Of a stretch of 64,000 bases of DNA, positions 2,772-28,301 are shown in pieces. Under the pieces are notes generated by a model. That model was not told the DNA's origin. It ran no database searches and saw only the letters and a list, made by a program, of their open reading frames with translations. The DNA comes from a virus (taxonomy: Duplodnaviria; Caudoviricetes). Position 1 is the stretch's first letter, and every line of letters begins with the position of its first letter. The position numbers were made by a program, and so were the translations under genes. The stretch is from IMG/VR virus record IMGVR_UViG_2903109678_000002, positions 1-64,000 of that record; one strand, written 5' to 3'.

Positions 2772-4169
2772 TCAAATCATCCCCCTCGGTTGTTCTCCCG
2801 CCTCAGGGTCATCCCGATAGGGATCCGACTCGGGCTCCGGCTCCGGTTCTGGCTCCGGTTCAGGTTCCGGTTCTGGCTCCGGTTCAGGTTCCGGTTCCGG
2901 CTCTGGTTCCGGCTCCGGCTCCGGTTCCGGCAACGCCGGCCCATCGGCAAGGGTGGCCCCGCCCAGCAGTTGGCTAAACTCGAGGAACACAAACTCTGCC
3001 GGTTTGACCACTGCCAGGCCAATGCGCATACGCATAATGCCAGCCAGCGTATCCTGCTGCGTCATGGTGCTGCCGAGGCCGATTTCAACGCGATAGCTGC
3101 TTTGCGGGGTATCCCCGGCGAAGGCCTGCTGGCGGAACAGGACGTAGAGATAATTCTCCACCCCGGCACGCAGTGCTTCCCAACTCACCGGGCCGTTGGG
3201 TTCAAACAGAAACCGCTGCATGGCCTGCTGCAAATCACGCTCCACCCGATCAAAGGTGCGGCGCACGTTAATATAGCCCCACGCCGGGCCGCTGTGGGTC
3301 AGGGTGCGCGCCCCCAACAGCACCGCACCACGACCGGGAAACTCGCGGAACATATTCACCGAGGGCGCGGTAAAATCCTTGCTGGTGAACGCCTGCTGGG
3401 CGCTGTTGCCCACGGCCACCTGCGGCTTCAGTCCACTGCTGAGCGGTAAATTACCCGGTGCGAGCCACGGGCCAGCGGCGTTATCGGTTTTCATCACCAA
3501 CCCGGCCGCCACGGCGCTGGGTGGCACCGCGTAAGTCCCCACTCTGCCTCCCTGCAATGTCCAGCGGGCATTGAGCCACGGATAGTAGAGCGCGGCACGG
3601 GGAGTGGGTGAAATCTCACCCAGAAAATCGTGCAGCCGCTGCGCCGAATAAAACCCCTGATGCTGCGGACCATCCAGCAGGGCAAAACGTCCGCTGCCGG
3701 GCTGGCACAGGTTGAGGATTCCCGCTATCACCTGCTGGGGTTGTCCGGCCTGCACCACCAGCGAGGCATCGCTCAGGGCTTCGATCTGCTCCAGCTGATC
3801 CACCGGGCAGAGGTAACAAGCCGTGCCGCCATTGGCGAAATAGGCGCGCAGAGCCAGTGCTTCAAGGCTGCCAGGATCGGCAGAGCGTTGGGCACCCGGT
3901 GCGTCCGCCGCTGCCGTCTGGGCGTCGTTGTCGGCCAGCCAGCGACTGGCCGCTGCTAAGCTCAGGCTCCCTACGCCCATATTGCCCGCACCTTCCAGCG
4001 CGAAATAGTCTTCCAGGCTACCGATCAGAGCTGGCTGCTGCTCGCCCCACCAACGGCTGCCCGCAGAGGTGAGCAACACCGGCACTGCGCGGGAGGACGA
4101 GCCAAGGGCGAGATCAAAGTGTGAAACCTCTTCAACATAAACACCGGGAGAGAGTGGCAATTGCGACAT
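2772..4169 (-). CDS. Afp2-like tail sheath protein with C-terminal (Pro-Glu)17 extension
   Basis: SPGVYVEEV, AYFANGG, GSGRFALLDGP, LGARTL, KPAEFVFLEFSQ, followed by a PE tract. Confidence 0.9.
   Translation of the reverse strand: MSQLPLSPGVYVEEVSHFDLALGSSSRAVPVLLTSAGSRWWGEQQPALIGSLEDYFALEGAGNMGVGSLSLAAASRWLADNDAQTAAADAPGAQRSADPGSLEALALRAYFANGGTACYLCPVDQLEQIEALSDASLVVQAGQPQQVIAGILNLCQPGSGRFALLDGPQHQGFYSAQRLHDFLGEISPTPRAALYYPWLNARWTLQGGRVGTYAVPPSAVAAGLVMKTDNAAGPWLAPGNLPLSSGLKPQVAVGNSAQQAFTSKDFTAPSVNMFREFPGRGAVLLGARTLTHSGPAWGYINVRRTFDRVERDLQQAMQRFLFEPNGPVSWEALRAGVENYLYVLFRQQAFAGDTPQSSYRVEIGLGSTMTQQDTLAGIMRMRIGLAVVKPAEFVFLEFSQLLGGATLADGPALPEPEPEPEPEPEPEPEPEPEPEPEPEPEPEPEPESDPYRDDPEAGEQPRGMI
2829..2930 (-). 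repeat. Coding (Pro-Glu)17 repeat with mixed synonymous codons
   Basis: 102 bp of imperfect 6-bp units using CCG/CCA/CCT/CCC and GAG/GAA. Confidence 0.95.
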
Positions 4170-4294
4170 AGTGCAGGTCTCCAGAACGTGGCCCGGCCAC
4201 GGTTCAGCGCAGCCGGTACCACAGGCATGATTAAGGGGCTCGTTCAGTGCGATCGGGTCGCGGGATCATTCAGCGCAGTCACCTGGCACCTCAG

Positions 4295-4328
4295 AAAAAA
4301 ACGATCTGCCCCCGGCGGAGGGCAGACC
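4295..4328 (-). terminator. Rho-independent terminator after the AAA+ ATPase gene
   Basis: Minus strand GGTCTGCCCTCCGCCGGGGGCAGATCG followed by T7. Confidence 0.75.
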
Positions 4329-4383
4329 TGGCGAAAGCGCCATGTGACCTGAGAGGTAACTGCAAGACTGAACCCGGCTATCG

Positions 4384-6447
4384 CTAGCCGCGCCCCATTT
4401 TGCTCAGTTCCCGCTGGATGGCGCGTTCAATATGTTCCAGCGAGATAGTTTTTTTCTCCGCGCTTAGCCAACTGGCGAGCAGCGCGGCGTTGCGGATGTT
4501 GGCACCGGTCAGCGCCAGCTGCGCCAGCCGGGCAAAATCGACCTCTTTCGCCACTTTGATCTGCGGCGGCCACACCGCACGCCACATCTGCTCGCGCAGG
4601 TCGGCGTTGGGGTAGGCAAAATGCGTAATAAACGAGAAGCGGCGGGTAAAGGCATCATCCAGATGGCTACGGTTGTTGGTGGCGAGGATCACCAGCCCAG
4701 GGTGATGCTCCAGCCGCTGGAGCAGATAAGCCACTTCGATGTTGGCATGCCTGTCTTTGGCATCTTTGGTTTCACTGCGCTTACCGAACAGCGCATCGGC
4801 TTCGTCAAAGAACAGCACCCCCGCATCCTGTACGGCGAGATCAAACACGCGGGCCAGGTTTTTCTCGGTTTCACCGATGTATTTGTTGATGATGCTGGAG
4901 AGATCAACGCGGATCAGATCCACACCTAGCGCCCCCGCCATCACCTCCGCCACCATACTTTTCCCGGTGCCGGGGTCACCATAGAACAGGGCGCTGATGC
5001 CGGTGGCCTTGCCCACTTTGCGCGCAAAGCCACGCTCCAGCACCCGCTCGCGCTGGCGTACTGCGCACAACACTTCATCCAGCTGCTCGCGTAGCCCAGG
5101 GCTAATAATGATGTCATCCCAGCTGCGCTGCGGCGTGACGCGCTGGGCCAGCGCATTGAAATTCTGTTTAGCACGACGCAGGAAGGCGGCACGAAAATCT
5201 TCCTCCTGCGGCCACATCTTGCCGCGCTGCATCGCCAGCGCGTGGGATTCAGCCACGGCGCTACGCATGGTATCGAACGGCAGCGCAATACGCTGCACCA
5301 GCGCGCGGGCATCCCACTGTGGCGTATTACCACCAAGTAAAGAGAGCAGGTAGTTGTAGCGTTCTTCTAAGCCCGGCACGCCAATCTCCAGCGCGTGGCG
5401 GCTGAGGCGGCTAAAGGGCAACTGCGAAAGCTGTGCTGCACTGAGGGTGCAGATCGGCAAGGGCAGCCCGTCGCGCACCTGTTGCTCCACTATCTGTTCC
5501 AGCTGCTCGATCAGGGCGCTGTAGCTGTCGCCCCCTTCCCCCGCTGCTTTAGGGGGCGGGAGGTCCAGCACCAGCAGTGAACGCGTCAGCCGGGTGAAGT
5601 TAAACAGCTGGCGCAGCAACAGCGGCGCATCACGGCCGGTGTTAAGCAGTTGCAGCCAGGAGACCCACAGCGCCTGGCTATTGAAGTGGCGTGCCAGTTC
5701 AGCAATATAGGCTTCACGGTCGGTACCGGCTTCACTGCGGATGTCGAGCAGCGGCGTCAGGCTTTGGTGAAACGCCAGCTGGCTCACCGCCGCCTGATGG
5801 CTGCGATCGTTGTGTTGATCCTCCACCCAGCGCGCCATGCCCTGTAACCCAGCAGGCAGGCTTTCACTGCCTAACAGCCAGTCCAGCACCATTTCATGGG
5901 TGCGATAGCCCTGCTCTTCACCGGCATTACGCCGGGGCAACAGTTCGATCAGCCCGTCGCGCTGTAGCGGCGCATCCGCCTGTAGGCTGGCGCGTTGGGC
6001 ATGACGGAGAAAGGTGCCCGGACAGAACAGTGCCTGAACCAGCCCGAAACTGGGGCCTTCATTTTGTTGCAGCGGAAGCTGAGCAAATAGCTGGCGATAG
6101 CGCGGCTCAAAGCTGTTCAGGCAGCCCAGCAGCAGCACCGCCAGTTCGAACTCACTCAGTTGATACTGCTCCACCAGCTGCGCCATGCGGCTTTCGGCGG
6201 GCAGATCGAACTGCGGGATGTTGCTTTGCCAGTTGGCACTGCGACCGGCCCAGTAAGGCATGGCGCGCGTGGCGCTTTCCAGCTCGCTGCTGGGCGGATA
6301 GAAATCACTTTGTGGATCAAACTGATACTGCTGCTGGTGGCGCAGCAGAATGGCATCCACCTGCGCCACGGCCGCCAGAAAGGTATAGAGTTGATCTTCC
6401 GCGGCAGCGCTGTCGGCTGGCGGGACATCTTCGGGCATCAGGTTCAT
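4384..6447 (-). CDS. Afp15/Pvc15-like AAA+ ATPase
   Basis: Walker A GDPGTGKS, Walker B LFFDEAD, KYIGETEKNL, DRHANIEVAYLLQRLE; long N-terminal domain. Confidence 0.93.
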   Translation of the reverse strand: MNLMPEDVPPADSAAAEDQLYTFLAAVAQVDAILLRHQQQYQFDPQSDFYPPSSELESATRAMPYWAGRSANWQSNIPQFDLPAESRMAQLVEQYQLSEFELAVLLLGCLNSFEPRYRQLFAQLPLQQNEGPSFGLVQALFCPGTFLRHAQRASLQADAPLQRDGLIELLPRRNAGEEQGYRTHEMVLDWLLGSESLPAGLQGMARWVEDQHNDRSHQAAVSQLAFHQSLTPLLDIRSEAGTDREAYIAELARHFNSQALWVSWLQLLNTGRDAPLLLRQLFNFTRLTRSLLVLDLPPPKAAGEGGDSYSALIEQLEQIVEQQVRDGLPLPICTLSAAQLSQLPFSRLSRHALEIGVPGLEERYNYLLSLLGGNTPQWDARALVQRIALPFDTMRSAVAESHALAMQRGKMWPQEEDFRAAFLRRAKQNFNALAQRVTPQRSWDDIIISPGLREQLDEVLCAVRQRERVLERGFARKVGKATGISALFYGDPGTGKSMVAEVMAGALGVDLIRVDLSSIINKYIGETEKNLARVFDLAVQDAGVLFFDEADALFGKRSETKDAKDRHANIEVAYLLQRLEHHPGLVILATNNRSHLDDAFTRRFSFITHFAYPNADLREQMWRAVWPPQIKVAKEVDFARLAQLALTGANIRNAALLASWLSAEKKTISLEHIERAIQRELSKMGRG

Positions 6448-6501
6448 AGGGCGATCCGTTTGTCAGGACAAAGGGGGAAATCGGGTGGACCGGAGGAATT
6501 A

Positions 6502-7434
6502 TTAATGGGGGGTGGGCACCGCCTCCGCATTTTTCTCCGGCACCTGCACCAGGCCATCAAGATTGACCTTTTTCACCGACCAGCTTGTGCCTGCCAGATC
6601 AAAGGTTTTCCCTGCCCAGCCGTTGGCGGTCTGCTCGAGCAACGTAACCTGTTCTGCCAGTACCAGCCCGGCCACGCTCACATCCACCTCCTGCACCGGT
6701 TCCCCGGCTTTCTTACGCCGGATGGTTAACGTGGGTACCGCCCGCACGGTGACGCGCGCCAGCGCCCCTCCCGGCAGCTTATGCGCCAGTTCGGCATACA
6801 GTGCCTGTTCTAACTGCAGCTGATCGTGGCCGGGGAGCGGTTCAAAGGTCGATTCCACCTTTTTCACCGGCAGAATTTCTTCCATATCATCCAGAACCAC
6901 CGGCATGGTGACGGCAAAGTTGAGAATGGTGCGCGGCTTATCCCCCAGCGCCTGCCAGAAGTTGCCGAGGCTGTTCAGCGCTTCTGGCTCGATAATGCGC
7001 AGCTGATACTTCTTAAACGCGCTGTTTTTACGCAACTTCAGCAGTGCGCGAATCATGGTGCTGTGGTTTTTCACCGAGTCGCTGTCCGGTTCCGCCTGCG
7101 GCGAGGTGGCACTGATTTTGGTCGGCGGCTCCCAGTAGGTCACCAGGTAGAGACAGCGGATAAAGGCGCGGTCCGGCTCATATTGCCCACTTTGCGGTAA
7201 ATAGGCAGTGGGTGAGCTGTGGCGAATCGCCAGGTCTTCATGAATCAGGTACATAAATAAGTGGAACGTCGGGCTATTAATTGACGCATCTTTATAATTG
7301 GGCTCATCGAAGCGGAAATTAAGTTTATCGCTGTCTTCGGGAACGCCAAAGCTGGTGTGCAAGTGGCGTTTAAGTGACATATTAAATTCACCGATCTCGC
7401 TGGCTGCGAGAGTGTCGAACAGGGATTTAGGCAT
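6502..7434 (-). CDS. Afp16/Pvc16-like cap / tail terminator (DUF4255-like)
   Basis: FMYLIHEDLAIRHS, YLVTYW and LNSLGNFWQALGDKPR motifs typical of Pvc16. Confidence 0.85.
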   Translation of the reverse strand: MPKSLFDTLAASEIGEFNMSLKRHLHTSFGVPEDSDKLNFRFDEPNYKDASINSPTFHLFMYLIHEDLAIRHSSPTAYLPQSGQYEPDRAFIRCLYLVTYWEPPTKISATSPQAEPDSDSVKNHSTMIRALLKLRKNSAFKKYQLRIIEPEALNSLGNFWQALGDKPRTILNFAVTMPVVLDDMEEILPVKKVESTFEPLPGHDQLQLEQALYAELAHKLPGGALARVTVRAVPTLTIRRKKAGEPVQEVDVSVAGLVLAEQVTLLEQTANGWAGKTFDLAGTSWSVKKVNLDGLVQVPEKNAEAVPTPH

Positions 7435-7635: not shown

Positions 7636-9099
7636 TTACAAAGTCTTGGTAATCATATCGCCAGTATTAGTAAATGCAACCGCATCACCAATCTTAAGTA
7701 TGTAATCGATAGACAGACTATAACCAACACTCCCCACCCCGCCGCGATGTGTTTTTTCATGTCGACTACCATTTATATAAACACTATCCGAATTATAATT
7801 CACCCCATTCAAATCAGCACCCCTTCCAAAGCCAGCCAAATACGTACCAGAAGAATTAACATAAGCAATAAAATAACCCCTAGAACTATACCCATATAAA
7901 TGACAGTTATGCAGCCTGGCCATTTGAATTATTAACATCTCCTCGGTAAAATTAGAATACAGCTGTCCAGAGCTGTTAATTTTTATCGTCGAATCATCGA
8001 CTTTCAACCCCAACTGCCCGGTGCTATTAATTTTTAATGTATTATCATGGCTTACGCCTAAAACCGCACCATAAGGCCCTGTTCCTTTATATTGTTTAAG
8101 GCCTTTTTTCTCCCCATTGGCGGCACCAACATTAATCCAGATACCGTCAATATCCTTTGGCGCACTGCTAATGACAGCAGCAACACCGCCATCATAGTCA
8201 GCATTATTTGAATATAAACTAACGCCTACCTCACCATTCGTTGTTATTTTCAACCCATTTGTACCGCTTATTTTCACATTAACTTTATTATCAGCGTCAA
8301 TCTCTAACGACGAACCCGTCGCCATCCTTAATGCATTGCTTTCAATTTTTAAGCCTGACATTTTACTAGTATTCAGCATCAAGCCATTAGTACTGCTGAC
8401 TAAGCCCCCCGAGGCATGGGGCATTACCCCTAGCTTCCCGGTACTGCTATCAATCTTTAACGTATCATCATGGCTCACGCCTAAAACCGCACCAGCAGCA
8501 TATGTGCTTTTATATTGTTTAAGACCTTTTTTACTCCCCATTCCACCAACATTAACCCCAAGACCGCTAATATCCGTTGGGTTATGGGAAATAACAGCAG
8601 CAACAAAGCTATCAGAGTCAGCATTGTATGAATATAAATTAACCTCCACCTCACCACCTTCTGATATTTTCAACCCATTTTTATTGCTTGTTTTAACATT
8701 AACTGTATTATCAGTGCCAATCACTAACGACTTCCCAGCGTCTAGACTCACGCCATTGGTATCGGAAAGCAGCCCTCCCGTTGCTTTCGCCTTTACATGC
8801 AATTTTTCATTTTCAAACACCAACCCATTACCGGTTTTACCACCATTATTATCGTCGGTATTTGCCATTCCTAGCGCACCGGCGACATCATAGTGCTGAT
8901 CCAATAGCTGTTTATAATCCGCTTCGCGCGGTACGGCATTGGCGCGAAATTTTTTGATTAATTCCTCACGCTTTTGCGCAAAGGGCAAGGTGCTGGCCGC
9001 CTGCGGGGCGGATTCCGACTGCGGCGCGATCGCGGCTTCAGGCTGCTTCTGCGCTGAATCCTGTGCATTATCCGTTGCTGCTGGGGTCTTTTTAGCCAT
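7636..9099 (-). CDS. Afp13/Pvc13-like tail fibre with shaft repeats
   Basis: N-terminal LIKKFRANAVPREADYKQLLD anchor motif; GLxx/LxV shaft-like repeats; AT-rich distal part. Confidence 0.8.
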   Translation of the reverse strand: MAKKTPAATDNAQDSAQKQPEAAIAPQSESAPQAASTLPFAQKREELIKKFRANAVPREADYKQLLDQHYDVAGALGMANTDDNNGGKTGNGLVFENEKLHVKAKATGGLLSDTNGVSLDAGKSLVIGTDNTVNVKTSNKNGLKISEGGEVEVNLYSYNADSDSFVAAVISHNPTDISGLGVNVGGMGSKKGLKQYKSTYAAGAVLGVSHDDTLKIDSSTGKLGVMPHASGGLVSSTNGLMLNTSKMSGLKIESNALRMATGSSLEIDADNKVNVKISGTNGLKITTNGEVGVSLYSNNADYDGGVAAVISSAPKDIDGIWINVGAANGEKKGLKQYKGTGPYGAVLGVSHDNTLKINSTGQLGLKVDDSTIKINSSGQLYSNFTEEMLIIQMARLHNCHLYGYSSRGYFIAYVNSSGTYLAGFGRGADLNGVNYNSDSVYINGSRHEKTHRGGVGSVGYSLSIDYILKIGDAVAFTNTGDMITKTL

Positions 9100-9226: not shown

Positions 9227-11596
9227 TTACAACGCGGCACCGTAGTCAGGGCGCGGCCAGTTCAGGGTGATCGGTTCGGATAACCAACTGTAATGAATCT
9301 GTTCCAGCGGCCAGGGAATATGGCGCAGCAAAATATCTGCCGGATGCGGCTGTACGCTAAGCTGCCAGCCGTAGCGCTGTTGCTCCAGGGTGCCGGCGCG
9401 CTGGAGAAACAGCTGACGTAACTCTGACAGGCTGAGGTTTTTCAGGCCCGGTAGCTGGAGCAGCAGCGCTTGCAGCGCCGGTTCCAGCTGTTGCGCCTGC
9501 TGCTGGGCCAGTTCCAGCGGCCACTCTTGCTCCAGCGGCCATTCCAGTGGCCAGCCACACAGCAGTTTGCTACACAGGCTGCGCCACTCACCACCTTCGT
9601 CGTCTTGCCAAATCAGCGCATCCAGCAGCGCTATCGCCTGTTGCTGCGCCTCGGGCCCGCTAAAGCGCAGCGGTGCCTGTGGATCGGCTTGCACCACCAG
9701 CCCCTGTGAACGCAGCCAGCCGGGTAGCAGCGGCCAGAGCAATACCAGGCCCGCGTGATGCAGCTCCAGCTGTTCGGGCAGCGGTGGCGGCTTTGGTGGT
9801 CGCTGCGCAGCATTGCGGGTTGTGGACGTGAGTCGTGCCAACTGCTGCTGTGCCCGCGCAGAGAGCAGTTGCTGCCAGCCTTGCTTTTCGTTAAGGGGAC
9901 GTCGTGAGCCTTCAGGCTGGAGGGCCACCTCCGCGGTTAACGCGGCGGCTGGCGGTTGCTGCGCCTGCTGTACAAGCCAGGGTTGCAGCGCCAGCAAACG
10001 TTGCGGGTTGCCCGCAGTTAACAACCGCTCCAGCTCACGCCGCTCCTGCGGCTGTGGCGGACGGAGTTCGGCCGCACTAAAGCCATGCAACAGTGGAAGT
10101 TCGCTCTGCTGCCACAGTAACAACAGCAGCGCCAGCGGGGATGCCGTGCTCAACCGGGCCGCTGGCGCTAACAGTGCGCACAGCTGCCGCCAGTCACTGG
10201 CCGTCATCAGCTGCAACAGCCGCTGGCGCCCGCCAGGCAACTGCAATACGCCGATCAGCGCAGCCCTCTCGGTGGGGGAAATTGCTGGCAGGCCCGCAAG
10301 GCGCTGGCGTAATAACTGCTGCGGCGTGCGGGGCTGCCCTGACAGCGGCTGTGGCGTGCGGCGGCTTCTCGCCCGAGCGTTTACACCAGACGGCACAATC
10401 CGGGGCTGCCCCACCCGACGCTGGCGTAATAATGGCTGCGGCCTGGAATGGCTTCTCGCCTGAGCGTTAACCCCAACTGGCATACTTTTCAGCTGGCCCG
10501 CCACTTGCTGGCGCAGCAACGGCTGCGGCGTGCGAGGCTGCCCTAACAATGGCTGCGCCGTGCGGCGGCTTCTCGCCTGCGCGTTAACCCCAACTGGCGT
10601 ATTTTTCAGCGGGCCCGTCACTCGCTGGCGCAGCAACGCTTGCGGCGTGCGGGGCTGCCTTAACAGCGGCTGTGGCATGCGGCGACTTCCCGCCTGCGCG
10701 TTAACCCCAACTGGCGTATTTTTCAGCTGGCCCGCCACTCGCTGGCGCAGCAACAGCTGCGGCGTGTGAAGCTGCCCTAACAGCGGCTGTGCCGTGCGGC
10801 GGCTTCTCGCCTGCGCGTTAACCCCAACTGGCGTACTTTTCAGCTGGCCCGCCACTCGCTGGCGCAGCAACGGCTGCGTCGTGCGGGGCTGCCTTAACAA
10901 CGGCTGCGGCTTGGAATGGCTTCCCGCCTGTGCGTTAACCCCAACTGGCGTACTTTTCAGCTGGCCCACCACTCGCTGGCGCAGCAACGGCTGCGTCGTG
11001 CGGGGCTGCCCTGACAATGGCTGCGCCGTGCGGCGGCTTCCCGCCTGCGCAATAACACCTGACTGGCCCTGCTGCTTTGACGCCGTCGCGTCAGTTTGCA
11101 GCGCCCACCCTGCCACAGGTTGCGGCACAGTGGCAAAAGTGGGCCAATAGCCATTGCTCAGGTAACGCAGCAATGTCGACCACTCTGGTGGCGCTGCGTC
11201 AGCCAGAGGGATGGCTCCTGGCGTATCGCCACTGAGATCCCTGAGACTTTCCTGCTCCTCAGGGGGATTGCTTATCTCACGCCGATCGGCTGCGCCCCGA
11301 TCCTGGTCGGCAGGAACGGCGAATCTCTCCGTTGGGTCAATCTCCTGCTGCTGTAGCGCCTGTTCCAGCGCGGCCAGCAGCCGTGGCACAAACTGCCAGG
11401 AGAACTGCCTAAGCGGCAGCGTGCCAATATCCACTCGTAATGGCTCTGTTAGCATGGTATCTGCGGGAAGATAACGCGCCAGTAACGCCGCGAGCTGTGG
11501 GTTCAGCTGCTGCATCAGCTGGCTCACCTGCTGCTGGAGATAAGCCGCATGCGTTCGTGAGGTGGTTAGCGATACGGTGACACGATCAATCGGCAT
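9227..11596 (-). CDS. Afp14/Pvc14-like tape measure protein with internal tandem repeats
   Basis: LRVDIGTLP and YLSNGYWP at the N-terminus; HAGLVLLWPLLP, LFLQRAGTL and DILLRHIPWP at the C-terminus. Start set at MPIDRV after an AGGAG RBS. Confidence 0.85.
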   Translation of the reverse strand: MPIDRVTVSLTTSRTHAAYLQQQVSQLMQQLNPQLAALLARYLPADTMLTEPLRVDIGTLPLRQFSWQFVPRLLAALEQALQQQEIDPTERFAVPADQDRGAADRREISNPPEEQESLRDLSGDTPGAIPLADAAPPEWSTLLRYLSNGYWPTFATVPQPVAGWALQTDATASKQQGQSGVIAQAGSRRTAQPLSGQPRTTQPLLRQRVVGQLKSTPVGVNAQAGSHSKPQPLLRQPRTTQPLLRQRVAGQLKSTPVGVNAQARSRRTAQPLLGQLHTPQLLLRQRVAGQLKNTPVGVNAQAGSRRMPQPLLRQPRTPQALLRQRVTGPLKNTPVGVNAQARSRRTAQPLLGQPRTPQPLLRQQVAGQLKSMPVGVNAQARSHSRPQPLLRQRRVGQPRIVPSGVNARARSRRTPQPLSGQPRTPQQLLRQRLAGLPAISPTERAALIGVLQLPGGRQRLLQLMTASDWRQLCALLAPAARLSTASPLALLLLLWQQSELPLLHGFSAAELRPPQPQERRELERLLTAGNPQRLLALQPWLVQQAQQPPAAALTAEVALQPEGSRRPLNEKQGWQQLLSARAQQQLARLTSTTRNAAQRPPKPPPLPEQLELHHAGLVLLWPLLPGWLRSQGLVVQADPQAPLRFSGPEAQQQAIALLDALIWQDDEGGEWRSLCSKLLCGWPLEWPLEQEWPLELAQQQAQQLEPALQALLLQLPGLKNLSLSELRQLFLQRAGTLEQQRYGWQLSVQPHPADILLRHIPWPLEQIHYSWLSEPITLNWPRPDYGAAL
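10286..11059 (-). repeat. 117-bp (39-aa) coding tandem repeat: five full units plus two shorter ones
   Basis: CCCCAACTGG recurs at 10471, 10588, 10705, 10822 and 10939. Unit resembles GVNAQARSRRTAQPLLGQPRTPQPLLRQRVAGQLKSTPV. Confidence 0.95.
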
Positions 11597-11650
11597 AAGT
11601 TCTCCTGTCAGCAGGACACAGCCCAACACCGGCTATGGCTGCGCGCGGGC

Positions 11651-21448: not shown

Positions 21449-21449
21449 G

Positions 21450-22646
21450 TTATCCTCCCGTGGCCGCGACATGCTCGGCAGTCAGATAGAAGTCGAGATT
21501 AATATGGATAAATTCGGCCGGTCTTTGGGTCGCCACCGCCACCCTGACGCGCAGCAAACCACTGGCGATTTCACTGGCTGACATGGTTTCATCCAGACCG
21601 ACACTGATTTTATAGGCATCATCTTCTACGCCCCCGGCCAGCCCCCCTTGTTCCCACAGCCTTTTAAGCTGTTGGCGCACCACGGCATGCAGCCGGTACC
21701 AGGTGATTTCATTGTTAGGTTCAAAGACATAAGGGCGCATAGCCTCTTTCAGCGTCTGTTTAATCCACTTGACCAACCGCTGATTTTGCAGATAGACAAA
21801 GCGCAGGTCAGGTTGATTACTCAACGTGCGGCAACCCCAAATTTTAACGCCGCGACCGGGGAAACTGCGGATCTGATTCACCGAGCGGCCGCTGCGCGGA
21901 TCAGGATGGAACAACGTGACGGGTGTGAGATGGTCATACTGGGGTTTGAGCACCCGCTCCAGCCGCAGGTTAGCGGGGGCGTACCAGATACCCCGCTGCT
22001 TATCAGACTGTTGCATTTTGGCCGCCACGGCCGCACCCGGAGGCACGGCCCGCAGCGCGCGCGTGGGAAAGGCCGGATCTTCGCTGACCATCACCCACGG
22101 CCAGTATCCCGCAAGGTGTGCCCAGTGTTCATTGCCCCATTTTGCGTTGTATTTTTCTGCGTCAGCAGGCGCACTCGGATAGTCAATTAAACCCGTCAGG
22201 TTCAGGCTCGAGGCGCAGCAGATGGCCAGTTGATTAACCACACTTTCCCACTGGTTCTCATCTAGCAGCGGGAGTTCTGGCAGCACCACCAGCGTAATGG
22301 TGGGCTCGTCTGCCAGCAGGGCAAAGGCTTCATCGTAGCCCGTAACAGAGGGGACATCGTCGATCAGTGTGCCGAGAGAAATCACATAGCACTGGCCGCC
22401 ACCATGACTGAAGTAGAGGCGCATAGCGTCGGCGAGATAGCCACCGTTGCGCACAGCATCACGGCCAAACTGGTCATAATAGTCTTGCAGCGAAGTGACC
22501 TGTACCCGCTCAAGTACCGATGCTTCAGGATGGTCGGCATAACCAATAAACACCGGCAGCGCGGTGAGTTTTTCCCGCTGGCTGATGTTGATGATCTGTT
22601 GATGAAAAGAGACGCCGGGCTGACTGAAATCACTGTTCAAAGACAT
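21450..22646 (-). CDS. Afp4-like tail sheath protein
   Basis: QPGVSF, LPVFIGY, YFSHGGG, GIWYAPAN, WGCRTL, RPAEFI. Confidence 0.9.
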   Translation of the reverse strand: MSLNSDFSQPGVSFHQQIINISQREKLTALPVFIGYADHPEASVLERVQVTSLQDYYDQFGRDAVRNGGYLADAMRLYFSHGGGQCYVISLGTLIDDVPSVTGYDEAFALLADEPTITLVVLPELPLLDENQWESVVNQLAICCASSLNLTGLIDYPSAPADAEKYNAKWGNEHWAHLAGYWPWVMVSEDPAFPTRALRAVPPGAAVAAKMQQSDKQRGIWYAPANLRLERVLKPQYDHLTPVTLFHPDPRSGRSVNQIRSFPGRGVKIWGCRTLSNQPDLRFVYLQNQRLVKWIKQTLKEAMRPYVFEPNNEITWYRLHAVVRQQLKRLWEQGGLAGGVEDDAYKISVGLDETMSASEIASGLLRVRVAVATQRPAEFIHINLDFYLTAEHVAATGG

Positions 22647-22711: not shown

Positions 22712-23986
22712 CTAAGCGGCCATAAGATCCTGCGAGAAGTCGAGCCAGAGAAACTCCACCGGACGCAGCGCCGCCAGCCCGATGCGGATGCGCAAAATGC
22801 CAAGGCTTAACTCACTGGACGTCAGCGCCAGTTCAACCTGGAAAGCCTGCTGTGGCGTTTCCCCATACAGCCCTCCCTGCTGCCACAGACGGTGCAGATA
22901 CTGATTGATTGCTGCCCGCGCCGACTGCCAGGTGCCTGCTGAGTTGGGTTGATACACCACCGGCAGCAGCAGGTTACGGACATCGCGCTCAACGGTGTTA
23001 AACAGCAGCCGCACCGGGATGTAGCGCCAACTGCTGTCGCTACTGGTCGCCAGCGTGCGAGCGCCCATCACCGTCGTGCCACCTTGTTCCTGCCAGAGAA
23101 TGGCATTAACGCCCCGTTCGTTGAGATCACCATGCTGAGCGTTACCAATGGCACGCTGCGGGTCAACGCCTTCCAGCGCAAGATTGGCGCTGGCCTGCCA
23201 CACGCCCAGTTGGCGCTCGGTGCGACAGTAAAGCCCGGCAACAGGTGCACAGGGTGAGAGCGTGAAGGTGTTCAGGTGCTGGTAATCCACGGTGACGAGA
23301 TTGAGCCACTGCTTGACCTTGCGATAGGTTTCCCGCTGTTTAGCCGTCCCCTGCGCCAGCGAGCTGAGGCTGCATGCAAGGTCACGGAGCCAGATATCCG
23401 ACGCCTGAATACTGAGCGGTTGACGCGGCACCAGATCCGGCGTGTAGCAGGCACTCTGTGCCTGTTCGCCGTAACGCGGTGGATTCCCACTGCCAACCAC
23501 ATAGCGCAGCAGCAAAAACGACTGTGGTAGCCGTGAAGTTAAGCCACCAAGCTGCGTCAGAATAGCCTCATCATCATGGCCCACATCAATCAGCGCCATC
23601 AGCGAGATATCATCCCGCTGCGCGAGGATTTCGCTGAGGCGCGCAATCTCATCACCCTGCGCCAGCGACAGGATGTAACAAGGGCCACCGCCGTTTTCGA
23701 AGTAGCTGCGCAAGGCAAATGCTGCGCTGTGAACGGCACTGCGTTCTGGCTGTAGGCTGTCTGGCAGTGAGTCGGTCTCGACTTCCACCCACACTTGCGC
23801 CCCCTGCAACAGCTGGCAGTAGTGCTGCCAGTTTTCAATCCACACCGGGCCATAGCTAAGGCTTAGTGGCGTGTTGTCCTGCTGACGAAAACGCCCCACC
23901 AGCAATGGCACCAGCTTGCTCATGCCGGGACTGGCCAGTGCCAGCCGGTTGTTCTCTTTAATAAATACGCCGGGATAATTGCTCAT
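22712..23986 (-). CDS. Afp3-like tail sheath protein (copy 3)
   Basis: YPGVFIKE, VPLLVGRF, YFENGGGPCY, MGARTL, WRYIPVR, RPVEF. Confidence 0.9.
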   Translation of the reverse strand: MSNYPGVFIKENNRLALASPGMSKLVPLLVGRFRQQDNTPLSLSYGPVWIENWQHYCQLLQGAQVWVEVETDSLPDSLQPERSAVHSAAFALRSYFENGGGPCYILSLAQGDEIARLSEILAQRDDISLMALIDVGHDDEAILTQLGGLTSRLPQSFLLLRYVVGSGNPPRYGEQAQSACYTPDLVPRQPLSIQASDIWLRDLACSLSSLAQGTAKQRETYRKVKQWLNLVTVDYQHLNTFTLSPCAPVAGLYCRTERQLGVWQASANLALEGVDPQRAIGNAQHGDLNERGVNAILWQEQGGTTVMGARTLATSSDSSWRYIPVRLLFNTVERDVRNLLLPVVYQPNSAGTWQSARAAINQYLHRLWQQGGLYGETPQQAFQVELALTSSELSLGILRIRIGLAALRPVEFLWLDFSQDLMAA

Positions 23987-24057
23987 CCTCTTCTCCTGGG
24001 AATCCATCGGGCCGCAGGGCGGCTGACGGCGAAGGGTTCAGGTGGTTAGGTATAGAT

Positions 24058-25455
24058 TCAGGCGAGAACCTGTAGCTGTTGGGTAAATTCCAGTTCGATA
24101 AATTCTGCGGGCCTGAGCGGCGCCAGGGCGACACGAATGCGCATTACCCCTTGTGCCTCGTCATCCTCATCCAGCGCAACCTGCACCTGGAAGGCCTGCT
24201 CCGGGGTCAGCCCTTGTAATCCACCCCGTTTCCACAGCAGGTAGAGGTATTGGCGGATGCCCGCCGTGGCCGCTTGCCAGCTGCGTGCGCCGTTGGGTTC
24301 GAACACCTGCGGTTGGATTATCGCCTGTAGATCTCGCTGCACCGCGTTAAACAGCAGGCGTACCGAGACGAAGCGCCCGTTGAGGTCTTGCGTGTCTGCG
24401 GTGCGCGCCCCGGCGATCACCGTGCCAGTGCGAGGCGACCACAGCAGCGGGTTAAAGCCTGCCTGAGTGAGCTCCGCCTGCTGCGACAGAGTGAGATTAT
24501 GGGTCGGCGCGGGGCCAGCGAGTTGAATGTTGGCCGGTGCTTTCCAGATGCCGCGTTCGCGTTCAGTTTTGCAGAAAACACCGGCGACACCACCGGAAGG
24601 GGCCAGGGTAATAGCCCGTAGAATGCTGTCATCGAACTGGTCAGTGTTACGCCTGGCGGTGACATTGGCATATTGCTCTCTTTGCCTTTCATCATCGCTG
24701 ACTTTAAGTTGTGCAAGGGTTTTACCGGTGCCCGCGAGCAGGGTGCTCTCTTCTTCCAGTTCACCGCCCGGCGAAGAAAACTTCAGTGCAGGTGTGTAAG
24801 TTGCAACCTGGCGGTTATCCGGCAGCGGTTGCGGAGGTACAGCGCCAGGGTACGGCTGATGGGTAATCAGCATGGCTTGTGGGTTAATTTCCTGCAACAG
24901 CGGAAAGGCAGTTTGCATGGCCACTTTGGCCTGGTCATCCAGGGCTACGTACAGGGTAATGTCATTATATTCTTGCAAAGAACCCGCGATTTTTCCCCCT
25001 TGCTGCTCGCTTTCGCAGTGCATGACATAGCAAGGGCTGCCACCATTATCAAAATAACATTTGACCCCAGCAGCACCCGTAGCGATGTCTGATGATTTAA
25101 GCACCACAATGTGATTATTTTCAGGTACTGGCACTGCACCGAATGTCACATCGTCTTCCATTGCGGAGAGGGATGTTTGCAGCGGCGATTCATCGCCTTG
25201 TTTTCTGTCTCCCCCCTTTTCAACAATCGGTTCTCCCCAACCATTCGCTAAAACAACGGTACGGGCATAAGGCGCGAATCTGGCCAGAAAAGCCTGATAA
25301 CTGTCAATCCACAGCGGTGCATTAACATGCTCGTCAGGATCGCCGCTGCAGCTCAGAAAACACCCCAACAACAGCGGCACATGGCCACTCGCGGCTGCCG
25401 CTCCCCGGCTGGGTGAATCCACTTCAGTAATACGCACACCAGGAATGTTACTCAT
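24058..25455 (-). CDS. Afp3-like tail sheath protein (copy 2)
   Basis: IPGVRITE, VPLLLGCF, YFDNGGSPCY, GIWKAPAN, RPAEFIELEFTQ. Confidence 0.9.
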   Translation of the reverse strand: MSNIPGVRITEVDSPSRGAAAASGHVPLLLGCFLSCSGDPDEHVNAPLWIDSYQAFLARFAPYARTVVLANGWGEPIVEKGGDRKQGDESPLQTSLSAMEDDVTFGAVPVPENNHIVVLKSSDIATGAAGVKCYFDNGGSPCYVMHCESEQQGGKIAGSLQEYNDITLYVALDDQAKVAMQTAFPLLQEINPQAMLITHQPYPGAVPPQPLPDNRQVATYTPALKFSSPGGELEEESTLLAGTGKTLAQLKVSDDERQREQYANVTARRNTDQFDDSILRAITLAPSGGVAGVFCKTERERGIWKAPANIQLAGPAPTHNLTLSQQAELTQAGFNPLLWSPRTGTVIAGARTADTQDLNGRFVSVRLLFNAVQRDLQAIIQPQVFEPNGARSWQAATAGIRQYLYLLWKRGGLQGLTPEQAFQVQVALDEDDEAQGVMRIRVALAPLRPAEFIELEFTQQLQVLA

Positions 25456-25589: not shown

Positions 25590-25601
25590 AAAACAGCGTG
25601 A

Positions 25602-27005
25602 TTACGCGGCGGCTAACAGTTCCTGAGTAAACTCCAGGTCGATAAACTCCACCGGGCGCAACGCAGCAAGGCTGACGCGTACGCGCAGGATGCCGTTGTC
25701 GATATCCCCGTCTTGCAGCGCAATCTGCACCCGATAGGCCTCTTCTGGCGAGTTGCCAAACAGCCCACCGCGTTTCCAGATACCGTGCAGATAGTTACTG
25801 ATACCCGCCACTACCGCTTGCCAGGTAGGTGCTGAGTTCGGCTGGAAGATAATCGGTGCCAGCATTGCGCTGACATCACGTTCCACGGTGTTAAATAACA
25901 GGCGTACCGGGACGTAGCGCCAGTTAGTAATGTTGGGATCTGCGGAGGTGCGCGCCCCCATGATTGAAGTGCCCTTCTGCGGCGACCACAAAATGGCATT
26001 GACCCCAGCCTCGTTCAAAACACCGTGTTCCTGGGCACTAATAGTGTGTACTGGCGTTACCCCCACCAGAGAAACGTTCGCAGGTGCTTTCCACACCCCA
26101 CGGTTGCGCTCGCTGGTGCAATACGCGCCCGCCACAGCGGCAACTGGCGAGAGAGTTAGCGAACTCACCGCTGAGAAATCCAGTGGCGCGAGTGCCAGAT
26201 TGTCTTTTACCGTTTTGTAAACGGCTTTATCTCGCTGAGCGGAAAGCAGCGCATTACCCAGGAAAATACCGTTTTCATTCACCACGTTGAAATTACTCTC
26301 CAGCTTCAGCTCTGGGGTGTAACTGGCAGAAAATTCATTTTTAGGCATGACCGGGCCGGCTGGTGGCGTACTGCCGGTAAACGCTGCATGGGCAATAAAC
26401 AGGGATTGTGGATTATGCTCTTGAATCGCGGCAATACTGCCTTTAACCAGCTCTTGCGCACTGGCATTCAAAGGCACATACAACGAGACTTCATCCAACT
26501 CTGCCGTGGCTTTTTCTAAATCGTCTTTTGCATCAGAAGCGCTTAAAGCGAGGAGATAGCAAGCGCCGCCCCCGTTCGAAAAATAGCTGGCCACTGCTGC
26601 CGAGGAATTGTCATACAAATATGAACTGCTGATTTTTGTTGGCTGGCCGCTGGTAAAAGGTACCTCCGTGGCCGCAGCCACGCTATCAGCCTCTTTTGTC
26701 GCTTTTTTACTTTTTTTAGCTTCTACGCCTCCTGCCTCTTCGCCGCTTTCTTCATCACCGCCTTCCGGAAGGGGGGCCGCCTGGCCCCATGCCGGCGCCA
26801 GTTTAATAATCAGCGGGGCCGCAACGAATTTTTCAGCAAACTCCGCATAGTTAGCCACATAGACTGCGCCATCTGCCGCATTGGCTTGCGTTCCGTCCTT
26901 TTTCCAAAAGGCTCCCACCAAAAGCGGCACCAGGCCGCTCATGCCCGCAGCACCCACCGAAGGGGTACTGCTTTCAATAATTTTCACTCCAGGATTTCTA
27001 CTCAT
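25602..27005 (-). CDS. Afp3-like tail sheath protein (copy 1)
   Basis: NPGVKIIE, VPLLVGAF, YFSNGGGACY, GVWKAPAN, WRYVPVR, RPVEFIDLEFTQ. Confidence 0.92.
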   Translation of the reverse strand: MSRNPGVKIIESSTPSVGAAGMSGLVPLLVGAFWKKDGTQANAADGAVYVANYAEFAEKFVAAPLIIKLAPAWGQAAPLPEGGDEESGEEAGGVEAKKSKKATKEADSVAAATEVPFTSGQPTKISSSYLYDNSSAAVASYFSNGGGACYLLALSASDAKDDLEKATAELDEVSLYVPLNASAQELVKGSIAAIQEHNPQSLFIAHAAFTGSTPPAGPVMPKNEFSASYTPELKLESNFNVVNENGIFLGNALLSAQRDKAVYKTVKDNLALAPLDFSAVSSLTLSPVAAVAGAYCTSERNRGVWKAPANVSLVGVTPVHTISAQEHGVLNEAGVNAILWSPQKGTSIMGARTSADPNITNWRYVPVRLLFNTVERDVSAMLAPIIFQPNSAPTWQAVVAGISNYLHGIWKRGGLFGNSPEEAYRVQIALQDGDIDNGILRVRVSLAALRPVEFIDLEFTQELLAAA

Positions 27006-27032
27006 GATCGATCCTCATGAAAAGGCGCGTGA

Positions 27033-28301
27033 TCACGCGCCACTGGCAACTTGTTGGCTAAACTCCAGCACGATAAATTCCGCCGGGCGCACCACCGCAA
27101 TACCGATACGCGCTTTGAGGATTCCGTTATCAATGTCGGCCTGAGTCATGGTGACTCCCAGTCCCACCTGAATAAAGAAGGCCTCTTCCGGCGTATTCCC
27201 CTGTAACGCGCCTTTTTTCCACAGGTTGTAGAGGTAGTTCTCTACGGCGGCACGCACCGCCTCCCAGGTTGCCTGGCCGTTGGGCTCAAACAGCACCGAT
27301 TCCAGCGCCCGGCCAATATCGCGTTCTGCCATATCAAAGGTACGGCGCACCGGGACATATCCCCAGGCATTGCCGCCAGTGGTCAGCGTGCGAGCGCCCC
27401 ATAGCAGCAGACCACGCCCTTTGAATTCGCGCAGAATATTGACGGATTTGGTGGTGTGGTTTCCGCTGGTAAACAGGGCTTGCGTGGCTGACCCCACTTT
27501 AACCAGTGGGCTTAAACCCGAAGAGACAGCAGCATTTGCCGGTGCTTTCCATGGGCCTACGCTATTGTCAGTGCGACAGATGATGCCCGCTGCGACAGCA
27601 CTCGGCGCAACATTAGCAATCTCGGTCACCCCCGGAATGCTCCAGTTGGCTTTCAGCCATGGATAATAAACTGCAGCATGCTCTGTGGCCTGGATACCGC
27701 CGAGCGCAGTTTCAAGCTCACCTTTAACATCCCCTTTTGACTCCTCCGGCCCGTCCAGTAGAGCAAAACGCCCACTGCCTTCCGCGGTGTACTTCAGGAT
27801 GTCAGATGTTACTGTGCTCTGACCCGCCTGCACCACCAGGGTGACATCGGGCAATTTGTCCAGCCATTCGAGCTTATCTCTGGGCAGCAGATAGCAATAA
27901 CCGCCACCATTATCAAAATACGCTTTAAGGGCGGGTAAAGTGTGTCGATCCCAGTCCGGCACATCTGCCGTTTTGGTATTCACACCCATGGCATCGGCAA
28001 GACGAGGATGATGCGCCGGCCCGCCACGAGAAAGGCGTGAAAGCAGACTAACAACGGCACGCGGCGAGTAGTAGGCCACGCTTTCCGATTTACTCCCGCT
28101 GGCGGAGAAATAACTGAGTACATCCGCAAACGAATTGATCAAAGCGGGTTTTTCGCCCAACGCCTTCCACCAATCCAAAGAGCCCGAATTGCCGTCCAGA
28201 ATCACCGGTACTGCTGTCGCCGAGCTGCTGATGCTGAATGAGGGCAAATCCACCTCATCCACATACACGCCCGGCGCTTTTGGTAAAGTAAATACAGCCA
28301 T
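27033..28301 (-). CDS. Afp2-like major tail sheath protein
   Basis: APGVYVDE..SISSSATAVPV, YFDNGGGYCY, GPWKAPAN, WGARTL, RPAEFIVLEFSQ. Confidence 0.93.
   Translation of the reverse strand: MAVFTLPKAPGVYVDEVDLPSFSISSSATAVPVILDGNSGSLDWWKALGEKPALINSFADVLSYFSASGSKSESVAYYSPRAVVSLLSRLSRGGPAHHPRLADAMGVNTKTADVPDWDRHTLPALKAYFDNGGGYCYLLPRDKLEWLDKLPDVTLVVQAGQSTVTSDILKYTAEGSGRFALLDGPEESKGDVKGELETALGGIQATEHAAVYYPWLKANWSIPGVTEIANVAPSAVAAGIICRTDNSVGPWKAPANAAVSSGLSPLVKVGSATQALFTSGNHTTKSVNILREFKGRGLLLWGARTLTTGGNAWGYVPVRRTFDMAERDIGRALESVLFEPNGQATWEAVRAAVENYLYNLWKKGALQGNTPEEAFFIQVGLGVTMTQADIDNGILKARIGIAVVRPAEFIVLEFSQQVASGA

Follow-up and report, generated by a model that had tools for sequence, protein, structure and literature searches.

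The minus strand of positions 1-30235 of the window, by which we mean the whole 64,000-nucleotide stretch analysed (IMG/VR record IMGVR_UViG_2903109678_000002, Caudoviricetes), carries an Afp/PVC-type eCIS operon with seven intact sheath genes where three are usual. In the order of the operon strand its features are:

28859..30235, minus strand: TibC/Aah-type O-heptosyltransferase (TIGR04414, 532.6 bits, cut-off 200; Pfam TibC_1st, Glyco_transf_9)
28329..28784, minus strand: Afp1/Pvc1-type tube protein (Phage_T4_gp19, 94.9 bits)
27033..28301, minus strand: S1, Afp2/Pvc2-type sheath in the canonical position, 422 aa (Pvc2 287, Afp2 244, Pvc3 220, Pvc4 131 bits)
25602..27005, minus strand: S2, Afp3/Pvc3-type sheath, 467 aa (Pvc3 188, Afp3 175, Pvc2 170 bits)
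24058..25455, minus strand: S3, Afp3/Pvc3-type sheath, 465 aa (Afp3 165, PlPVC1 Pvc3 167, Pvc2 132 bits)
22712..24007, minus strand: S4, Afp3/Pvc3-type sheath, 431 aa (Pvc3 207.5, Afp3 202.6, Pvc2 167 bits)
21450..22646, minus strand: S5, Afp4/Pvc4-type sheath initiator, 398 aa (full-length matches: PlPVC1 Pvc4, 9qgl_4A, 229; Pvc4 218; Afp4 175 bits)
20984..21472, minus strand: Afp5-type tube protein (Phage_T4_gp19)
20808..21005, minus strand: 65-aa ORF in the Afp6/Pvc6 plug position, from the ORF listing, assigned by position and size only
20077..20811, minus strand: Afp7-type tube initiator (CIS_tube)
18419..20059, minus strand: VgrG/gpD-type spike (Phage_GPD, Phage_base_V)
17957..18400, minus strand: gp25-type sheath adaptor (GPW_gp25)
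17526..17960, minus strand: spike tip (CIS_spike_tip, 116 bits)
11651..17481, minus strand: a pair of large genes for baseplate wedge proteins of 932 and 1011 aa, located like Afp11/Afp12 and assigned mostly on that ground
9227..11629, minus strand: tape-measure protein, 800 aa (CIS_TMP, 190.7 bits)
7636..9099, minus strand: tail fibre (Av_adeno_fibre motif)
6502..7434, minus strand: Afp16/Pvc16-type cap (Pvc16_N)
4384..6447, minus strand: Afp15-type AAA+ ATPase (AAA, WHD)
4303..4328, minus strand: terminator-like hairpin with an 11-bp stem and then T7 (consensus scan)
2772..4169, minus strand: S6, Afp2-type sheath, 465 aa (Pvc2 242.7 against Afp3 163 bits)
2637..2771, minus strand: relic of the lost S6 propeller, 45 codons in the same frame past the stop (60% identical to S7 residues 753-797)
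1..2487, minus strand: S7, Afp2-type sheath, 828 aa (PlPVC1 Pvc2 245, Pvc2 228, Afp2 212 bits)

The heptosyltransferase gene, the single full copy in the whole genome, is the first on the operon strand, with the tube gene starting 74 bp downstream. A Pfam search with the two wedge genes returned no match, and the 932-aa product has a weak baseplate match (TIGR02243). Within the tape-measure gene there is a 117-bp tandem repeat (5.1 copies at 10450-11050, 88% matches), seen as 39-aa repeats in the translation. The strong hairpin (RNA fold -27.6 kcal/mol, z -2.57) lies 56 nt past the ATPase stop, ahead of S6. Beyond the sheath genes follow a sulfate permease, a TonB-dependent receptor, a PLD-domain protein (PLDc_2/PLDc) and mdoG, with no toxin gene among these next downstream genes at the operon's 3' end; the Afp of Serratia entomophila presumably carries the Afp17/18 payload genes.

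Seven sheath genes in three classes

Searching the whole genome with Phage_sheath_1C (Pfam) gave exactly seven matches, every one in the eCIS cluster, six exceeding the cut-off and S5 scoring 26.3 against 26.9 bits. All seven ORFs are open, that at 1-2487 being complete with its stop at 1-3. Grouping drew on BLASTP, scores against solved Afp/PVC chains and ML trees. By BLASTP S1, S6 and S7 share 44-48% identity over 419-464 residues (317-353 bits), S2, S3 and S4 33-39% over 465-475 residues (239-327 bits), and S5 has 25-35% with each other paralogue; on such comparisons the resemblance among the seven is homology and not chance. Thirty-three alignment columns are invariant in all seven, including those of the P-x-EF motif in the last strand, at the C-terminus. 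The first-pass annotation had proposed a 3+3+1 grouping from shared motifs, and these are indeed found: LVVQAGQ, GSG.FALLDGP and GPW.AP.N in the translations of 27033-28301, 2772-4169 and 1-2487, and VPLL.G.F, (I/L)LW....GT...GART and RLLFN.V.RD in those of 25602-27005, 24058-25455 and 22712-24007. BLASTP, solved-chain scores and trees containing the Afp/Pvc classes agree on the same division, confirming at the sequence level three Afp2/Pvc2-type genes (S1, S6, S7), three of Afp3/Pvc3 type (S2, S3, S4) and one of Afp4/Pvc4 type (S5, in the Afp4 clade at 100/100). S1 falls within the Afp2-type clade and is 91.7% identical to P0011 (Pantoea sp. A4 according to its source).

In gene set and order (tube, sheath block, tube, spike, gp25, wedges, fibre/TMP, cap, ATPase) and in having three sheath classes, with S1, S6 and S7 scoring best with Pvc2, S2-S4 with Pvc3 and S5 with Pvc4, the operon resembles PlPVC1 of Photorhabdus luminescens (PDB 9QGL/9QGN/9QGP, PMC12546770) and PVCpnf of P. 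asymbiotica (6J0B/6J0N). Those systems, however, have three sheath genes, not seven, and a Pvc2 core of 354-355 aa, whereas the Afp2-type core here has 405-432 aa, with an N-terminal insertion of ~50-60 residues that AF2 models at low confidence; the window further adds two post-ATPase Afp2-type genes from a linker and C-terminal module lineage, is headed by the heptosyltransferase and lacks toxin genes at its 3' end. Afp2, Afp3 and Afp4 of Serratia entomophila (PDB 6RAO, a plasmid locus; 354, 451 and 418 aa, one gene per class, without C-terminal extension) each fall in the matching clade. The nearest named relative found, a chromosomal cluster of Enterobacter sp. ECC-175, has an Afp2-type protein as long as those of the window and only three sheath genes (427, 480 and 413 aa), each of which branches next to one class of the window, as its sister or closest outgroup (100/100, 100/100, 100/99); upstream of it are Rz, a Q antiterminator and a GH19 lysozyme, and no heptosyltransferase.

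S2-S4 are a local expansion within the canonical sheath block. Together with the 480-aa ECC-175 gene they form a clade at 100/100, in which S3, the longest branch, is sister to S2 (99/96) and S4 lies outside the group holding ECC-175's single Afp3-type gene (92/90), so that S4 seems to predate the separation of S2 and S3. S2 aligns with Pvc3 and Afp3 from residue 121-136 onward, and with Pvc2 over the C-terminal core only. Identity among the paralogues stands at 47-60% in the C-terminal core and falls to 16-33% in alignment columns 46-145 and 16-49% in columns 201-300; the first insertion is shortened in S4. Residues 64-117 and 225-278 of PlPVC1 Pvc3 are given as a presumed fibre-docking knob in PMC12546770; judging from the alignment the differences among S2-S4 fall mainly at this region.

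The six within-class pairs have pS of 0.69-0.74 and pN of 0.36-0.45; with synonymous sites saturated, dN/dS is at most 0.21-0.31, and the neutral evolution of extra copies that the first-pass annotation had envisaged as counting against its proposal is not what is seen.

A sheath lineage with a C-terminal propeller

S6 and S7 lie at the far 3' end, past the ATPase and the hairpin, ~18 kb from S2-S4. In S7 the sheath domain (1-~427) is followed by a low-confidence linker (428-461) and a 7-bladed FG-GAP-like propeller (~462-828) in the AF2 model (pLDDT 81.2 at full length; 88.3, with pTM 0.89, for the C-domain). The best Foldseek matches of the C-domain are 7-bladed propellers, RACK1 and WDR5 on top, and HMMER matches S7 to PF14312-bearing proteins; with so generic a fold, the ligand cannot be read from it. 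S6 has a sheath domain (1-~405), a (PE)n linker and a 20-residue tail, with a 12/18-bp repeat at 2824-2931. A ~91%-identical relative contig, X2, covers cap, ATPase, S6 and S7 and carries 1159 bases in place of the window's 407 at 2492-2898. S6 has lost its propeller, and the 45-codon relic is left past its stop. The statement in the first-pass annotation that all frames are intact thus stands for the seven sheath domains and falls for the S6 C-terminal module.

S6 and S7 belong to a distinct, older Afp2 sub-lineage marked by a Pro-rich linker and C-terminal propeller: in the tree P0007, P0008, P0013, S6 and (S7, P0002) form a clade at 100/99, apart from S1, P0011 and P0012 (100/100). Given this separate lineage and the outside branching of S4 (92/90), the sheath duplications are of unequal age. 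Besides the window the fusion lineage is present in at least four other sequences: P0007, P0275 (named Serratia marcescens), P0276 and P0002 have sheath, Pro-rich linker and propeller-like C-domain as in S7, P0002 and P0007 being placed by the tree and the other two compared solely in pairwise identity and domain layout. P0007, an 830-aa sheath-FG-GAP protein, comes from an independent metagenome cluster where its gene sits between those for cap and ATPase, not after the ATPase as here. In their source records they bear a generic label ('phage tail sheath ... protein').

S7 and P0002 are 91.4% identical in the sheath and 80.5% in the C-part, the exception among fusion C-domains otherwise ~26% identical to that of S7. 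With P0276 (Pantoea sp. A4 according to its source) the sheath is 92.6% and the C-part 26% identical, similarity stopping within the linker, and a distant sheath homologue, P0285, bears Invasin_D3 together with four Big_1 domains where S7 has its propeller. By these alignments the module is variable and has been exchanged. It is dispensable in some clusters, given its loss from S6 and its absence from the clade member P0013. C-terminal extensions on such sheath proteins are rare among the homologues retrieved: of the best 120 of near length, 118 stop no more than 10 residues from the end of the sheath model and two are extended, and among the best 120 longer ones eight have extensions of at least 60 residues.

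Every coding indel listed between X2 and the window preserves the frame: S7 has three compensated pairs, the ATPase has one such pair, and S6 has a single +3. Among the 40 differences listed of 578, the S7 propeller has 22 non-synonymous of 35 changed codons, a fast change compatible with relaxed constraint and with diversification alike.

Sheath assembly and competing readings

The explanation we consider most likely, at about half our belief, is that a single Afp/PVC-type eCIS, acquired horizontally, builds one mosaic sheath from a diversified subunit set whose minor members expose a variable module for binding. On the model of PlPVC1, S5 would sit on the gp25-type adaptor and start the sheath, S1 would be the bulk Pvc2-type subunit and S2, S3 and S4 would form Pvc3-type layers; the first-pass annotation's background of two sheath types alternating over a single initiator layer agrees with what PMC12546770 describes for Pvc2, Pvc3 and Pvc4 of PlPVC1. 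With S2-S4 differing in outward-facing knob insertions, the baseplate-near sheath would show up to three surfaces, their order being pure conjecture. S7, in which the full assembly core is retained, and formerly S6, would be minor Pvc2-type subunits made from the operon end at a lower level, the hairpin reducing their dosage. A ~35-residue Pro-rich spacer would hold the S7 propeller outside the sheath, most likely for binding, whether to a target surface or as another tether. We infer incorporation, stoichiometry and this binding function, and also position: the likeliest place, an evenly balanced call, would be the top, cap-proximal ring, where the cap, not another sheath layer, is the partner of the C-terminal strand. 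Strand exchange between layers involves the sheath C-terminus, and a subunit with 400 residues appended there might fail to assemble anywhere but in the last layer, or fail altogether; an apical module opposite the spike end is an odd site for a target adhesin; and, given the hairpin, S6 and S7 may not be co-expressed with the machine.

The first-pass annotation had thought of a symmetric expansion into interchangeable layer pairs giving several particle variants from one baseplate, or a patterned mosaic. The mosaic is plausible. A heterogeneous population built from matched pairs is decidedly unlikely, despite three genes in each class and terminal arms conserved within class such that members could in principle substitute: gene order, age and features reveal no pairing, S6 and S7, far past the hairpin, belong to the module-bearing lineage, the S6 module is lost while S4 apparently predates the S2/S3 split, and a scan of window positions 1-7600 saw no switch, invertible element or alternative promoter. 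The extra Afp2-type genes neither adjoin nor were co-duplicated with the extra Afp3-type genes, and as the 3+3 arose from two unrelated histories the symmetric reading lacks support.

That the extra copies are remnants of eCIS-cluster recombination, tolerated, little used and heading for loss, would suit the mosaic composition along the cluster (GC 63.4% in S6, 55.8% in S1), the deleted S6 module, the many non-synonymous propeller changes and the want of a close S6 orthologue among near-length matches (best 51%, where S1 and S7 have ~92% orthologues). It is unlikely, however, with seven sheath domains open over 398-432 codons despite synonymous saturation and low dN/dS, both S6 and S7 frames kept in X2 at ~9% nucleotide divergence, and the fusion lineage recurring elsewhere. 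Improbable too is that S6 and S7 are sheath-fold accessory proteins outside the layers of the injected particle (envelope or particle-particle tether, payload-region products): they do occupy the payload position past the ATPase, set apart by the putative terminator and with no toxin gene downstream, but retain the whole assembly core and both terminal arms, the N-terminus being the conserved sheath arm, and the P0007 gene is inside a structural block.

Sheath-gene expansion has also occurred elsewhere in the family: a further member, G050, has five tandem sheath genes, three of Afp2 type and one each of Afp3 and Afp4 type, though unlike in the window only the Afp2 type is expanded, in tandem, at 354-365 aa and without C-terminal modules.

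Sheath genes of three classes

Sheath-domain matches in the whole genome number exactly seven, all of them inside the eCIS cluster of the window, and every motif that the first-pass annotation had quoted for them is found in the translations. Its division of the seven into three Afp2-like proteins, three Afp3-like and one Afp4-like, for which phylogeny had been set beforehand as the check, is returned alike by BLASTP, by scores against solved chains and by maximum-likelihood trees; its further picture of a symmetric expansion is not supported, since S2-S4 and S6/S7 have different histories. Full-length identity in BLASTP is 44-48% within {S1, S6, S7} and 33-39% within {S2, S3, S4}, with S5 standing alone.

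Sheath genes of the window and their scores (bits) against solved chains; 9qgl_2A, 9qgl_3A and 9qgl_4A are chains of Photorhabdus luminescens PlPVC1 (9QGL)
S1, 27033-28301 (-), Afp2/Pvc2-type: Pvc2 287, Afp2 244, Pvc3 220, Pvc4 131
S2, 25602-27005 (-), Afp3/Pvc3-type: Pvc3 188, Afp3 175, Pvc2 170
S3, 24058-25455 (-), Afp3/Pvc3-type: Afp3 165, Pvc3 152, Pvc2 132
S4, 22712-24007 (-), Afp3/Pvc3-type: Pvc3 207.5, Afp3 203, Pvc2 167
S5, 21450-22646 (-), Afp4/Pvc4-type: 9qgl_4A 229, Pvc4 218, Afp4 175, Pvc2-type at most 160 (9qgl_2A); best match full-length
S6, 2772-4169 (-), Afp2/Pvc2-type: Pvc2 243, Afp2 188, Afp3 163, Pvc3 159, Pvc4 114
S7, 1-2487 (-), Afp2/Pvc2-type: 9qgl_2A 245, Pvc2 228, Afp2 212, Afp3 177, Pvc3 176, Pvc4 129

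The Afp2-type clade including S1, S6 and S7 has an SH-aLRT of 100 in a quick tree for which 17 clusters supplied 55 sheath proteins, and 84/99 in a careful 22-protein tree composed of the seven window paralogues and five chosen three-gene clusters (L002, L003, L010, L013 and L014), to the exclusion of L004, L009, L011, L012 and L015-L021, among them the rows with long branches in L004, L018 and L021. Within the careful tree the three proteins of Enterobacter sp. ECC-175 (L003), the nearest named relative, each join one window group: the 427-aa protein as {ECC-175, (S1, (S6, S7))} at 100/100, 98/96 and 98/94, the 480-aa protein as {S4, (ECC-175, (S2, S3))} at 100/100, 92/90 and 99/96, and the 413-aa protein with S5 at 100/99, nested in an Afp4 clade at 100/100. 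Afp2, Afp3 and Afp4 of Serratia entomophila (L002) are likewise each placed in the matching group. In both the 55- and the 22-protein trees the Afp3-type sequences form a grade and not a clade.

S2-S4 lie within the canonical sheath block and match Afp3/Pvc3 best across the region with the two knob insertions (aligned ranges: S2 136-463 with Pvc3 96-438; S3 4-461 with Afp3 7-449; S4 11-429 with Pvc3 7-439), the first of these insertions being short in S4. Their divergence is concentrated in alignment columns 46-145 (16-33% identity) and 201-300 (16-49%), with 47-60% in the C-terminal core. Docking of retracted tail fibres on the Pvc3 knob is a presumption even in PlPVC1 (PMC12546770).

Neutral evolution of the extra copies, against which the first-pass annotation had staked its interpretation, is not seen. 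Within-class paralogue pairs have pS of 0.69-0.74 and pN of 0.36-0.45, and since synonymous sites are thus saturated their dN/dS of 0.21-0.31 is an upper bound only; 33 alignment columns are invariant in all seven proteins. Against X2, a biofilm-metagenome contig about 91% identical that covers window 1-7436, every listed coding-region indel is frame-preserving.

How exceptional is a set of seven? Among 16 other sheath blocks extracted, 13 have three genes, two have two and one has five, these counts covering the sheath block only, with whole-genome match lists checked for ten genomes. (The family-wide profile search scored the top three candidates per genome, paralogues being recounted separately in 10 genomes.) The five-gene block, in G050, comprises three Afp2-type, one Afp3-type and one Afp4-type gene, and ECC-175 has three sheath genes as against the seven of the window. 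No sheath gene outside a block appears in the whole-genome lists of the ten genomes save one, at G346:C72:278872-280257, where, in a family member with several clusters, a lone Afp3-type frame (open over 507 aa, 348 bits) has a complete cluster on either side, another sheath gene located outside a canonical block.

The eCIS operon and its surroundings

The first 30 kb of the window hold an Afp/PVC-type eCIS operon on the minus strand, in this gene order:

First part (-): TibC-type heptosyltransferase, tube, five sheath genes, second tube, 65-aa plug candidate, tube initiator
Middle (-): VgrG-type spike, gp25, spike tip, two large wedge genes, tape measure, fibre
End (-): Pvc16-type cap, AAA+ ATPase, two further sheath genes (S6 and S7), the last gene ending at window 1-3

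The core set of such a system is complete (tube, sheath, spike and tip, gp25 adaptor, two wedges, tape measure, fibre, cap and ATPase), Pfam matches identifying all of these genes but the two for the wedges, which, like the 65-aa plug candidate, owe their assignment to position and size. No toxin, effector or other payload gene is found at the 3' end (window 1-4383 and the locus L001, G000:C11:584568-599567), where only S6 and S7 follow the ATPase. Beyond S7 are housekeeping genes, for a sulfate permease, a TonB-dependent receptor, a PLD-domain protein (PLDc_2/PLDc) and mdoG, together with acyltransferase- and glycosyltransferase-domain genes. The payload of this eCIS, if any, is encoded away from the usual place. 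S6 and S7 themselves were considered as payload and rejected, the full assembly core being present in both. Between the ATPase gene and S6 is a strong intrinsic-terminator-like hairpin (4303-4328 (-), 11-bp stem, T7, -27.6 kcal/mol), which suggests that the structural operon ends there and that S6 and S7 may be expressed separately or via read-through.

Because the GC content of the cluster is 52-63% as against about 44-53% in the flanking window, and because S7 has no match at E <= 1e-5 in any of 74 genomes from other species of the same genus, the cluster looks to have been horizontally acquired. No tRNA gene was found at the island borders. Directly upstream of the island is a lambdoid siphovirus prophage (33046-64000) with genes for terminase, portal, ClpP-type protease, capsid, tail tube, tape measure, gpL, gpK-like protein, gpJ, tail fibre and lysozyme. 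The spacer at 30.3-33 kb has a GC content of 40% and small ORFs only, one of which, at 31785-31991, encodes 68 aa in which RKGG motifs recur.

Heading the operon, 74 bp ahead of the tube gene, is the genome's only full copy of a TibC/Aah autotransporter O-heptosyltransferase (28859-30235 (-); TIGR04414 equivalog, 532.6 bits against a cut-off of 200), a gene that the related ECC-175 cluster is without. No autotransporter substrate lies beside it, the genome's only two Autotransporter-domain matches being on contigs C1 and C44 and the window on C11. Speculatively, the enzyme might glycosylate a component of the particle, for instance S1 and S7 at their Ser-rich insertions. Among the papers listed, titles and abstract openings do not seem to link heptosyltransferases to contractile injection systems.

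The C-terminal module of S6 and S7

A typical Afp2/Pvc2 subunit is compact, of about 354 aa, and ends right after its last strand. S1, S6 and S7 depart from this in having an N-terminal insertion of about 50-60 residues, and S6 and S7 further carry C-extensions of about 60 and about 400 residues, respectively. In a second careful tree, of 18 Afp2-type proteins, S6 and S7 cluster at 100/99 with P0002 and P0007, which are sheath-FG-GAP fusions, and with the Afp2-type P0008 and P0013, apart from {S1, P0011, P0012} at 100/100.

S7 consists of the sheath domain, a linker (428-461) of low AF2 confidence and a 7-bladed propeller, modelled with a pLDDT of 88.3, a pTM of 0.89 and 27 strands. The top Foldseek matches of the propeller are 7-bladed propellers (TM by target 0.73-0.79), generic WD40-like and without functional lead. 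In Pfam S7 gives PD40 alone, at 22.4 bits, and no FG-GAP match (PF14312/PF01839); its orthologue P0002 reaches 23.8 bits for FG-GAP_2 against a cut-off of 23, while P0007 and the further fusion P0275 have clear FG-GAP_2 repeats at 75-83 bits. The sequence relatives of the S7 C-domain are FG-GAP_2 repeat proteins, with PF14312-bearing proteins matched at E 5e-21 to 7e-11.

S6 stops after a (PE)n linker, and the same frame then runs on for 45 codons, with 60% identity to the last blade of S7, while at this site X2 has 1159 bases in place of the 407 of the window; the in-frame relic and the longer X2 sequence are the grounds for considering the S6 propeller deleted in the window genome. The DNA of the S6 linker (2824-2931) is a 12/18-bp tandem repeat coding about 20 Pro-Glu pairs, and could change length by slippage with the frame kept.

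Where the module is present, it is variable. S7 and P0002 share 91.4% of the sheath domain and 80.5% of the C-part, while for P0276, a fusion named Pantoea sp. A4 by its source, the figures are 92.6% and 26%, the likeness stopping within the linker. P0285, a distant homologue, has Invasin_D3 and four Big_1 domains at the position of the S7 module. P0275 has the source name Serratia marcescens; in the plasmid collection nothing comes closer to it than a match with 50% coverage at 36%. Among the 40 of 578 differences from X2 displayed, 35 codons of the S7 propeller are changed, 22 of them non-synonymously; such fast change is compatible with diversification as well as with relaxed constraint. 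At 848-955, in one blade, 106 bases are swapped for 103 unrelated bases in X2, a local patch replacement.

The module is also rare. Of the best near-length S6 homologues 118/120 end at most 10 residues from the end of the sheath model, and a C-extension of at least 60 residues occurs in 8 of the 120 best longer S1 homologues (one of these, a sheath-AAA fusion, may be a gene-calling artefact), the remaining 112 being long through insertions within the protein or through sheath domains in tandem. The fusion gene of the metagenome cluster L022 is located between the genes for cap and ATPase. Just past that ATPase gene, and convergent, L022:14960-21184 (-) encodes a protein of >2000 aa without Pfam match, a possible payload candidate. 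A full-text search of main texts outside subscription journals found nothing linking contractile injection systems and a sheath with FG-GAP, nor, judging by titles and abstract openings, with a beta-propeller C-terminus. Two things are unusual here, the number of genes and, more than that, the sheath lineage with its modules, of which the literature searched gave no description.

Sheath layers and a possible display function

A single mosaic particle would be the most economical reading of the seven genes. S5 would be the sheath initiator and S1 the bulk subunit, S2, S3 and S4 would make distinct Pvc3-type rings, and S7 would be a low-copy Pvc2-type subunit whose Pro-rich spacer keeps the variable propeller outside the sheath. 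Strand exchange between layers involves the sheath C-terminus. In PlPVC1 the sheath is ordered as Pvc4, then Pvc2 and Pvc3 alternating, then Pvc2 alone at the apex, and the cap loop pairs with top-layer Pvc2's C-terminal region (PMC12546770). Because the C-terminus is used between layers but pairs with the cap at the top, the top ring would be the only site for a C-terminal appendage without steric clash. S7 may be in this cap-proximal ring, at chances that we put close to even, and the position of its gene near those for cap and ATPase would agree with such a placement.

As protein-delivery devices, PVC and Afp particles are both under study and in use, and their specificity is thought to reside in the tail fibres. 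A joint reading, tentative and to our mind rather doubtful, would make the sheath a display scaffold, in which a dedicated Pvc2-type paralogue with exchangeable C-terminal binding modules (FG-GAP propellers, or invasin/Big_1 stalks in the distant homologue) provides a second layer of specificity that does not depend on the fibres, reshuffled among strains by linker recombination; the three Pvc3-type rings would form an ordered proximal surface pattern, and the cluster's own heptosyltransferase may glycosylate the particle. If true, a sheath subunit tolerating a C-terminal domain of ~400 residues, exchanged among near-identical strains, would show where a contractile sheath accepts cargo-sized appendages, and there would be a second determinant of what PVC/Afp-type particles attach to. 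How multi-paralogue sheaths specify their layer order, a matter left open by the PlPVC1 authors (PMC12546770), could also be tested directly with the seven-gene set.

The tape-measure gene (9227-11629) has at 10450-11050 a 117-bp tandem repeat, 5.1 copies with 88% matches, coding 39-aa repeats, and its protein has 800 aa as against 619 aa in L022. Particle length reportedly scales with the tape measure, Afp14, in Afp; if it does so here, the particle of the window would be longer, with room for more sheath layers.
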